DNA of 64,000 bases from Escherichia coli (GCF_002854065.1 NZ_CP024147.1), one strand, 5' to 3'. Counted from the stretch's first letter, positions 7,297-9,922 are shown. Translations and numbers: made by a program. The notes: a model not told the origin generated them from the letters alone.

Positions 7297-7435
7297 CATA
7301 ATGTTCATTTGTTATTATTCCGCCCTATCACTTCTCTCGTCATATCCTAGAATTATCAGTTAGTTAAACACACAAAGAGATCTGAACATCTTAAATAAGA
7401 CTATTTAAGATGCATAACTTGGTAATGACTCCAAC

Positions 7436-7939
7436 TTATTGATAGTGTTTTATGTTCAGATAATGCCCGATGACTTTGTCATGCAGCTCCACCGATTTTG
7501 AGAACGACAGCGACTTCCGTCCCAGCCGTGCCAGGTGCTGCCTCAGATTCAGGTTATGCCGCTCAATTCGCTGCGTATATCGCTTGCTGATTACGTGCAG
7601 CTTTCCCTTCAGGCGGGATTCATACAGCGGCCAGCCATCCGTCATCCATATCACCACGTCAAAGGGTGACAGCAGGCTCATAAGACGCCCCAGCGTCGCC
7701 ATAGTGCGTTCACCGAATACGTGCGCAACAACCGTCTTCCGGAGCCTGTCATACGCGTAAAACAGCCAGCGCTGGCGCGATTTAGCCCCGACGTATCCCC
7801 ACTGTTCGTCCATTTCCGCGCAGACGATGACGTCACTGCCCGGCTGTATGCGCGAGGTTACCGACTGCGGCCTGAGTTTTTTAAATGGCGGAAAATCGTG
7901 TTGAGGCCAACGCCCATAATGCGGGCGGTTGCCCGGCAT
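7436..7939 (-). CDS. insB: IS1 transposase InsB
   Basis: 167-aa [16 protein letters not shown]..., made as an InsAB fusion by -1 frameshift at the A6C run. Confidence 0.95.
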
Positions 7940-8133
7940 CCAACGCCATTCATGGCCATATCAATGATTTTCTGGTGCGTACCGGGTTGAGAAGCGGTGT
8001 AAGTGAACTGCAGTTGCCATGTTTTACGGCAGTGAGAGCAGAGATAGCGCTGATGTCCGGCAGTGCTTTTGCCGTTACGCACCACCCCGTCAGTAGCTGA
8101 ACAGGAGGGACAGCTGATAGAAACAGAAGCCAC
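7858..8133 (-). CDS. insA: IS1 protein InsA
   Basis: 91-aa ORF with N-terminal Cys-rich zinc-finger-like motif ([28 protein letters not shown]). Confidence 0.95.
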
Positions 8134-8226
8134 TGGAGCACCTCAAAAACACCATCATACACTAAATCAGTAAGTTGGCAGCATCACCGCATAACTTAGA
8201 TTCGCAAGATAGGTAATGACTCCAAC

Positions 8227-8730
8227 TTATTGATAGTGTTTTATGTTCAGATAATGCCCGATGACTTTGTCATGCAGCTCCACCGATTTTGAGAACGACA
8301 GCGACTTCCGTCCCAGCCGTGCCAGGTGCTGCCTCAGATTCAGGTTATGCCGCTCAATTCGCTGCGTATATCGCTTGCTGATTACGTGCAGCTTTCCCTT
8401 CAGGCGGGATTCATACAGCGGCCAGCCATCCGTCATCCATATCACCACGTCAAAGGGTGACAGCAGGCTCATAAGACGCCCCAGCGTCGCCATAGTGCGT
8501 TCACCGAATACGTGCGCAACAACCGTCTTCCGGAGCCTGTCATACGCGTAAAACAGCCAGCGCTGGCGCGATTTAGCCCCGACGTATCCCCACTGTTCGT
8601 CCATTTCCGCGCAGACGATGACGTCACTGCCCGGCTGTATGCGCGAGGTTACCGACTGCGGCCTGAGTTTTTTAAATGGCGGAAAATCGTGTTGAGGCCA
8701 ACGCCCATAATGCGGGCGGTTGCCCGGCAT
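8227..8730 (-). CDS. insB: IS1 transposase InsB
   Basis: Protein identical to the copy-1 InsB. Confidence 0.95.
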
Positions 8731-8924
8731 CCAACGCCATTCATGGCCATATCAATGATTTTCTGGTGCGTACCGGGTTGAGAAGCGGTGTAAGTGAACT
8801 GCAGTTGCCATGTTTTACGGCAGTGAGAGCAGAGATAGCGCTGATGTCCGGCAGTGCTTTTGCCGTTACGCACCACCCCGTCAGTAGCTGAACAGGAGGG
8901 ACAGCTGATAGAAACAGAAGCCAC
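8649..8924 (-). CDS. insA: IS1 protein InsA
   Basis: Protein identical to the copy-1 InsA. Confidence 0.95.
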
Positions 8925-8979
8925 TGGAGCACCTCAAAAACACCATCATACACTAAATCAGTAAGTTGGCAGCATCACC

Positions 8980-9922
8980 CTATTATCCATAAAGATAATT
9001 CAATGTGTCGCTTTGGAATATCAAGCGTAGCTACTAACTTCTCGATAAAATCAACCTGAGATACTGTTCCTTTAACAAGTAAACTGTTGGTATCAGGATA
9101 TGCAATAATTTGTATATCGTCAGTCTCTGGCGCTCCTGCTGTCGATATTATTTTCTCTACTTGTAGGTCATCATCTTCTTCAGCACCAGGAAAAGGAGGC
9201 ATACGTGATACGTTTTTTAGTTGTTGACGACTTGAAATTTCAGAAAGTACGTTCACCCCTGTGCTTTGCTTAATGTTATTATTTAACAACGTCGATAGTA
9301 CTTTTGCCATGCCAGGAATAATTATCTTTTCGCCACGTAACTCATAAGTCCGGTCATTAACGAATGTGTTGACCAGATGAATTATTCCTACTTTATTTCG
9401 ACCGATCTCAATGCCATCGCTGTTTTGCTCCATTAATTTCGCAGCATTAACGACCAGGTCAACATAAACCGGTGGCCCCGATACATAGAAAGTACCATTG
9501 CCGCCCCCTTTAATTTCATAACGAGAGTTATACAGACCCGATTTTTTTAAGAAATTATTAAACTCATTCGTCGATACCTTTCTCAGATTAATCAATGCAT
9601 TACGCATCTCTGATGAGTCATAGATATAAATAGCTTTGCCATCATCATACCAAATAAGCCCAATCTGTGCCGACAGGCGTTCAATCAAGGCATAGGGTTC
9701 TGTTAAATCAAAATTCCCGCTGATCTGTTTCTTCATGGCAAGCTTACTAACTATTGTAGGCTTACCCGCATATGATGAAACCGTTTCAAAAAAACTACGT
9801 AGATTTTCTTTATTTGCTACGTATCCATTCGCTGCTGCGGCATATGCACCAGGAGTCAATAATCCATTAAAAATGCATAAGACTGAAATTAATATAATAG
9901 TAATGCGTAATTTTATTTTCAT
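8980..9922 (-). pseudogene. eivG: Truncated type III secretion secretin (InvG/EivG-like), N-terminal ~313 codons only
   Basis: Signal peptide plus N-domain resembling InvG (GLIWYDDGKAIYIYD, FYVSGPPVYVDLVVNAA, AYPDTNSLLVKGT); the frame runs into the IS1 end and stops at a TGA inside IS1 (8975-8977); the secretin C-domain is absent. Confidence 0.8.

Follow-up and report, generated by a model that had tools for sequence, protein, structure and literature searches.

The window analysed here is a stretch of 64,000 nucleotides from Escherichia coli (GCF_002854065.1, NZ_CP024147.1), read on one strand from 5' to 3', and its genes follow in the order yqeF, yqeG, two copies of IS1, a truncated sctC (sctC'), eivF, a GhoT-like gene, GH15 (glycoside hydrolase family 15), IS2, the tRNA-Gly region and actS. 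By its position between yqeG and tRNA-Gly (glyU) and by its SPI-1-like eiv genes, the locus belongs to the ETT2 island, of which a remnant alone is present; the right flank is 99.8% identical to XJ34. The features around the IS1 pair are as follows (junction strings are read from the window, with a slash at each IS1 end).

6015-7244, plus strand: yqeG, amino acid permease, intact, the ETT2 border (RefSeq annotation of 100% identical DNA in 100416, XJ34 and CUWW06)
7412-7420, no strand: left target-site duplication of copy 1, GCATAACTT, present once at the empty site of XJ34 and 100416
7421-8188, minus strand: IS1 copy 1, 768 bp, IRR 7421-7443, IRL 8166-8188, a simple insertion
7436-7939, minus strand: insB of copy 1, 167 aa
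7858-8133, minus strand: insA of copy 1, 91 aa
8189-8197, no strand: right target-site duplication of copy 1, GCATAACTT
8198-8211, no strand: native yqeG-yqeH intergenic remnant between the copies, 14 bp, AGATTCGCAAGATA, contiguous with GCATAACTT in XJ34 and 100416
8212-8979, minus strand: IS1 copy 2, 768 bp, IRR adjoining intergenic DNA and IRL adjoining the interior of sctC, no duplication
8980-9922, minus strand: sctC/eivG, ETT2 secretin gene, truncated, the N-terminal 314 of 567 codons kept
9919-10668, minus strand: eivF (RefSeq name), InvF-like AraC-type regulator, intact (NF011868 InvF, E 1e-53)
Left junction of copy 1: TTAAGATGCATAACTT/GGTAATGACTCC
Spacer junction: CAGCATCACC/GCATAACTTAGATTCGCAAGATA/GGTAATGAC
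Right junction of copy 2: CAGCATCACC/CTATTATCC

Structure of the tandem IS1 pair

Direct comparison of copies 1 and 2 showed that they have the same orientation, are spaced by 23 bp and match at 768/768 positions with 0 mismatches, and their coordinates and sequences in the earlier note proved right to the base. Both copies run from IRR (GGTAATGACTCC...) to IRL (...GGCAGCATCACC) on the plus strand, so that insA and insB lie on the minus strand. The two ORFs overlap at 7858-7939, where an A6C frameshift run is located at 7876-7882 on the minus strand; RefSeq labels the identical element "programmed frameshift", and a -1 frameshift giving the InsAB' transposase is predicted here. Against the IS1 transposase profile NF033558 (NCBIfam model), InsA of copy 1 covers positions 1-81 and InsB positions 76-199, and the terminal repeats, IRR GGTAATGACTCCAACTTATTGAT and IRL GGTGATGCTGCCAACTTACTGAT, agree at 18/23 positions. 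With a length of about 768 bp, imperfect terminal repeats of about 23 bp and overlapping insA/insB' ORFs, both copies are members of the IS1 family. Moreover, copy 1 is a 768/768 match to the elements that RefSeq names IS1B in 100416 and CUWW06. A third IS1, identical and inverted, is located at 15435-16202 and flanked by a 9-bp duplication of its own (AACGCGGTA), and the corresponding site is empty in CUWW06; all IS1 copies of the window are 100% identical, three within 9 kb.

The two copies differ in their flanks. Copy 1 lies between two repeats of GCATAACTT, a sequence that is absent from the rest of the 64-kb window. In XJ34 and 100416 the uninterrupted site reads ...AAGATGCATAACTTAGATTCGCAAGATA... 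with one GCATAACTT, followed in XJ34 by TCTTCTGG, and the chance of a 9/9 match at fixed positions is about 4e-6. On the 9-bp duplication and the single GCATAACTT at the empty site, copy 1 is a simple transposition, as had been proposed from the repeats. The 23-bp spacer consists of GCATAACTT and then AGATTCGCAAGATA, whereas the flanks of copy 2 are CGCAAGATA at the left and CTATTATCC at the right, without any duplication.

Deletion of ETT2 DNA at copy 2

The DNA on the two sides of the pair has a very different distribution. The left flank (5400-7420, yqeF-yqeG) is present in 5,418/5,426 complete E. coli genomes, with 100% identity in 100416, XJ34, XJ6-3 and CUWW06, whereas the right flank (8980-11200), which carries sctC (eivG), eivF and the GhoT/OrtT-family toxin gene of ETT2, is present in just 1,326 of the 5,426. 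At the right end of copy 2, the sctC fusion ORF (8975-9922, minus strand) enters the IRL of IS1 and terminates in ...IIG and a stop codon. This ORF matches the SctC profile TIGR02516 (profile positions 3-193, E 5e-64), and the surviving sctC DNA is 99.8% identical to sctC of XJ34, which bears out the claim that copy 2 ends inside a secretin gene. The first complete ETT2 gene surviving beside the junction is eivF.

XJ34, which carries the full annotated ETT2, was used as the reference for the intact island, and the alignment suggested in the earlier note mapped both the deleted interval and the original target of copy 1. In XJ34, the flanks of copy 2 are located in the yqeG-yqeH intergenic region and at sctC codon 314, separated by 24,301 bp, and the DNA preceding the right flank of the window reads ...CTTATCAATAT. 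XJ34 has its own IS1 in yqeH, a 91%-identical isoform with the duplication CTCAATGCA; once this IS1 and its duplication (777 bp) were subtracted, the interval came to 23,524 bp. The lost DNA comprises yqeH, yqeI, yqeJ, yqeK, ygeG and ygeH, the apparatus genes of the epr/org, epa and eiv groups as far as escV and the gatekeeper gene, and, at the far end, 253 C-terminal codons of sctC. Both break points fall exactly at IS1 termini. As judged from this alignment, copy 2 is shown to be the scar of an ETT2 deletion of about 23.5 kb. The view of copy 2 as a deletion mark is thus upheld by flanks that lie 24.3 kb apart in an intact island; adjacent deletion by the transposase and RecA recombination would leave the same scar. 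A genome joining CGCAAGATA to CTATTATCC without IS1, the state that would contradict a deletion, was looked for and none was found.

The right junction of copy 2 was not found in the 5,426 complete E. coli genomes; the sole full-coverage match to this search, in MEW, proved to be another junction, which lies about 204 bp further inside sctC. It is present in four independent public assemblies (Logan ERR3970133 and DRR831865; ENA ERZ27255804 and ERZ28667097), whose contigs pass from sctC into the IRL of IS1 at the same nucleotide and encode a 315-aa fusion ORF; one of these four contigs begins at the IS2 boundary of the window itself. The tandem junction was found in none of the 5,426 complete genomes, in a search that joins both ends of any single IS1 into one place, and the tandem spacer junction had 0 matches in an exact scan of JGI metagenome contigs.

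The yqeG border and related genomes

When characterizing the yqeG side with a composite query of the left flank and the start of IS1, we observed eight distinct IS1 left junctions in 35 bp (7406, 7410, 7414, 7420, 7423, 7434, 7439 and 7441, in IS-free window coordinates). All eight have IRR towards yqeG, and no IS1 junction of the opposite orientation (IRL facing yqeG) was found in the 35-bp zone. Within about 630 bp, commonly 50-630 bp further in, IS1 was present in the same orientation in 34 genomes and in the opposite orientation in 48. EM20-18-50 and M9682-C1 have the same junction, directly after TCAGAATTA, with IS1 in opposite orientations, which indicates independent reuse of one position. 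The 13 IS1 elements examined at the border in 12 other genomes were all without duplication (13/13), and their partners were escV, eprH, eivF, ygeQ, the tRNA-Gly side, ygeV, ygeI and even tssM; therefore, E. coli has repeatedly lost ETT2 from the yqeG side with IS1 at the boundary.

The G+C content of this hot region is 22-36%, which fits the preference of IS1 for AT-rich targets, and the AT-rich hot region at the border accounts for two copies having been placed so near to each other, only 14 bp apart. Local alignments of the hot zone with the IS1 ends were weak (scores 6-11), and similarity between the two is not put forward as what guides the insertions. We tentatively suggest that IS1 may have an orientation-specific hot spot in the 35 bp directly after yqeG, to which local DNA structure or bound nucleoid proteins would steer it, a view that we hold to be possible but doubtful. 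All junctions of the hot zone except that of copy 1 in the window are coupled to loss on the ETT2 side. If there is such a hot spot, ETT2 loss would be semi-deterministic and not a random accident, and the tandem pair would show the process at one moment. The clustering and the orientation bias of IS1 junctions beside yqeG are mildly new.

Two genomes bear directly on the order of events. In 100416 there is a single IS1, 768/768 identical, at the exact left junction of copy 2 (...CGCAAGATA/GGTAATGAC), and copy 1 is absent. Its IRL adjoins escV, 3,806 bp short of the deletion endpoint of the window; 100416 also lacks the N-terminal part of sctC, eivF and the DNA beyond, a loss that adjoins an IS3-family element. 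For the 25 kb lying further to the right, the 15 best matches do not include this genome, so its relatedness to the window is shown at the local level only. Since 100416 is without copy 1, the site of copy 2 was filled before copy 1 came. Neither the window nor 100416 is ancestral to the other, and both can have had a common ancestor with IS1 at the copy 2 site.

CUWW06, a near-clonal strain, is the closest complete genome among the matches listed, with about 100.0% identity across 24.8 kb on the right-hand side of the third IS1 and 3 differences in the roughly 13.7 kb that it shares with the window round the locus. A Shigella origin, suggested by three identical IS1 copies in 9 kb, was rejected in view of this match to an E. 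coli genome. CUWW06 is rich in IS1 (at least 39 IS1-matching places) and has one identical IS1 at the exact left junction of copy 1 (...GCATAACTT/GGTAATGAC), the IRL of which meets the window sequence at position 10596, within the 5' end of eivF. Window positions 8189-10595 are missing, and with them the right duplication, the 14-bp remnant, copy 2, sctC' and the greater part of eivF. Lost DNA cannot return, so at this locus the state of the window is ancestral to that of CUWW06. The earlier note had described tandem direct copies as substrates of further deletion or amplification, and CUWW06, with the left junction of copy 1 kept and 8189-10595 lost, is a case of such deletion. Taken together, the relatives form a series of nested deletions with a shared IS junction and a differing other end.

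Proposed history, alternatives and known systems

We presume that IS1 shaped the locus in several steps at the ETT2 border next to yqeG, with an adjacent deletion anchored at the intergenic site, and we give this reading a probability of roughly 0.6. Firstly, an IS1 would have entered the AT-rich yqeG-yqeH intergenic region right after ...CGCAAGATA, with IRR facing yqeG. IS1 reportedly promotes adjacent deletions that begin exactly at its ends, a classical observation of Reif and Saedler from 1975. Secondly, a transposase-mediated deletion of this kind, by intramolecular transposition of the IRL end into DNA close by, would have removed the right duplication and the adjoining island DNA and kept the IS1 and its left flank. 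There was probably more than one round of this, a first to escV, the state kept in 100416, and then another 3.8 kb further into sctC. Thirdly, as the duplicated GCATAACTT indicates, a second identical IS1 landed 14 bp upstream by ordinary transposition and so produced the tandem pair. Fourthly, as seen in the sister strain CUWW06, the pair was reduced to one IS1, with the left junction of copy 1 kept and a new right junction in eivF. For other IS elements, experiments document stepwise growth of deletions and loss of duplications (PMC11708052). The postulated ancestor, with ETT2 intact and IS1 flanked by CGCAAGATA at this site, was looked for in the 5,426 genomes with a query of IRL, CGCAAGATA and native sequence, and no match at the site was found; this query gave just two matches, both in two pieces, with IS1 about 150 bp away.

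The same scar would also arise if two direct IS1 copies, one intergenic and one in sctC, had recombined through RecA, with 23.5 kb leaving as a circle and one hybrid IS1 staying behind without duplication, a route that we consider rather unlikely but worth retaining. The 100% identical IS1 copies of the window are ideal substrates for recombination in an IS1-rich lineage, IS1 does occur inside ETT2 genes (yqeH of XJ34, sctC of MEW, and eivG of the ST302 strain F2_18C, PMC6985150), and recombination between IS copies has been named as an event that often leaves an IS with no duplication (PMC11708052). However, this route calls for one more insertion and one recombination to explain each of the states in 100416, the window and CUWW06, where adjacent deletion needs one event each, and no genome with IS1 at the sctC site and a duplication of CTATTATCC was found in the complete-genome search. 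Although the scar is alike for both processes, the nested series, as far as junctions can tell, favours the transposase.

The scar itself is silent on which flank was the resident one, and the polarity of the deletion may be reversed. The resident IS1 would then have been in sctC (in escV for 100416), its IRR end would have attacked the hot region on the yqeG side, and the left junction would be the new one. The yqeG border is indeed a preferred IS1 target, with 8 junctions in 35 bp and positions reused independently, and copy 1 itself is a simple insertion into this zone. Because junction positions can recur independently, a shared junction is weakened as a sign of shared descent. Nevertheless, reversed polarity requires that the window and 100416 struck the same nucleotide independently, despite flanks and IS1 that are 100% identical, and the search at the sctC site yielded no IS1 with a duplication; we regard it as improbable. 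One-step insertion of IS1 at the break left by an unrelated deletion, with no target cuts made by the transposase, has been proposed for IS5 and IS481 (PMC11708052) and also puts an IS without duplication at the centre of a deletion, but no demonstration is known for IS1 and nested deletions with a common IS junction would be left unexplained, so that its probability is very low. Assembly artefact, with one true IS1 and a tandem copy made by mis-joined repeat reads, is the least probable reading, for although CUWW06, the closest complete genome, holds a single IS1 here and the tandem junction was not found elsewhere, four distinct junctions jointly demand two copies and CUWW06 is no collapsed version, being also without 2.4 kb of unique DNA; an artefact thus appears unlikely on account of the make-up of the spacer (an exact duplication followed by 14 bp of native DNA, beyond what collapse or mis-joining creates), its short span (23 bp are spanned by any read), the left junctions, each of which exists separately in another complete genome, and the right junction in four assemblies.

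On the preferred reading of an end-anchored deletion within a multi-step IS1 history, the case is already known in kind, an ordinary insertion-sequence-driven gene loss that is neatly resolved, and the tandem pair implies no new mechanism or gene function. Its value is that of a base-resolved example, in which one locus and two relatives show IS1 eroding a silent pathogenicity island stepwise, by insertion, end-anchored deletion, a second insertion nearby and further deletion. Previous work described mutational attrition of ETT2 and deletion isoforms (Ren et al. 2004, as cited in PMC3032704 and PMC11068852), and the 2024 ETT2 review (PMC11068852) describes deletion isoforms and names no insertion sequences as agent. 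Our observations point to IS1 as a frequent physical agent of this attrition. In addition, identical tandem IS copies with 23 bp between them are liable to mislead short-read assembly and PCR typing of ETT2 isoforms.

Compared with known systems, the pair resembles IS dimers and circle junctions (IS30, IS21, IS911 and IS2, and the circles of IS1) in that IRL and IRR face each other at a short distance, but a tandem dimer or active junction was rejected, the spacer being 23 bp (the 9-bp duplication plus 14 bp of native DNA) and not a few bp, and unlike dimer junctions the pair in the window has no sign of a junction promoter or of hyperactive ends. With a Tn9-like composite transposon it shares two direct, intact IS1 copies that bracket DNA, which came about here through nearby insertion and make no mobile unit; this candidate was rejected because the 23-bp "passenger" is without a gene and the outer flanks, GCATAACTT and CTATTATCC, differ. 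Like the ETT2 deletion isoforms, the window has a partial island, with sctC', eivF, the GhoT/OrtT-family toxin gene and GH15 kept by tRNA-Gly; among the 5,426 complete genomes, neither the exact isoform of the window nor its IS1 junctions were found. From IS1B-type simple insertion, copy 1 and the third copy show no difference, and copy 2 is without duplication owing to the deletion. The classical IS1 adjacent deletions (gal, Tn9) differ from the present case in that the events here are reconstructed from natural isolates, with a presumed role of the transposase, and they are like it in that the IS is kept, the deletion starts from the exact IS end, one flank is constant, the duplication is gone and the endpoints in relatives are nested.

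IS1 junctions downstream of yqeG

Among E. coli complete genomes, eight distinct IS1 junctions were found in a 35-bp zone 3' of yqeG. Window positions of this cluster and of a nearby inverted repeat are:

7255-7289: inverted repeat (16 bp, perfect; loop of 3 nt) and then a T-rich run, 11 bp past the yqeG stop codon
7406-7420 and 8198-8211: IS1 junction cluster (7406-7441 in IS-free coordinates, with the IS1 copies taken out), loci L002-L006 and L011-L013

The inverted repeat and T-rich run are probably the yqeG terminator, and the hairpin lies upstream of every IS1 junction seen. 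The yqeG-facing end of IS1 was the terminal repeat IRR at all eight junctions (8/8), and no opposite IS1 orientation was found within this zone in E. coli complete genomes. Except at copy 1 of the window (7421-8188), the first of its tandem IS1 pair, no duplication was present at these junctions and the distal partner differed for each. The 35-bp zone downstream of yqeG is a possible hot spot for oriented IS1 insertion.

Recurrent IS1 junctions at the ETT2 border

The IS1 copies of the unrelated strains EM20-18-50 (L016) and M9682-C1 (L019, ETEC O6:H16 clone) share the same left nucleotide, at the end of TCAGAATTA, with opposite orientations and different right partners; therefore, identical IS1 junction positions arise independently at the ETT2 border. 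In E. coli MEW (L015, NZ_CM192120.1), another IS1B cuts sctC about 204 bp deeper than that of the window. This element has the cmtA/cmtB region at its far end, and the arrangement therefore implies a large rearrangement, not a local deletion.

IS-associated divergence from the near-clonal genome CUWW06

Two further elements and two genes of the window entered the comparison with CUWW06, the closest complete genome:

9919-10668: eivF, InvF-like ETT2 regulator
11191-12911: GH15 gene
12912-14242: IS2, 1,331 bp, between the GH15 gene and tRNA-Gly
15435-16202: third IS1, inverted relative to the other two copies, in the actS-xdhA interval

The third IS1 is identical to copies 1 and 2 (768/768) and is bordered by the 9-bp duplication AACGCGGTA; it is a recent simple insertion, because no element occupies this site in CUWW06 or in the relative 100416. 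IS2 has a 5-bp duplication, AACCA (12907-12911 and 14243-14247). In CUWW06, an identical IS2 directly abuts window position 11190, and thus the GH15 gene has been lost there; the other side of this IS2 is an unrelated 294 bp not present in the window. eivF is intact in the window despite loss of the secretion apparatus; in CUWW06 all of it is deleted but the first ~24 codons. Only three differences (two indels, of 7 bp (TAATTGA) and 1 bp, and a single SNP, at 2556-2562, 5923 and 18838, respectively) were observed in the ~13.7 kb common to both genomes, yet four or more events associated with IS elements separate these near-clonal strains here.
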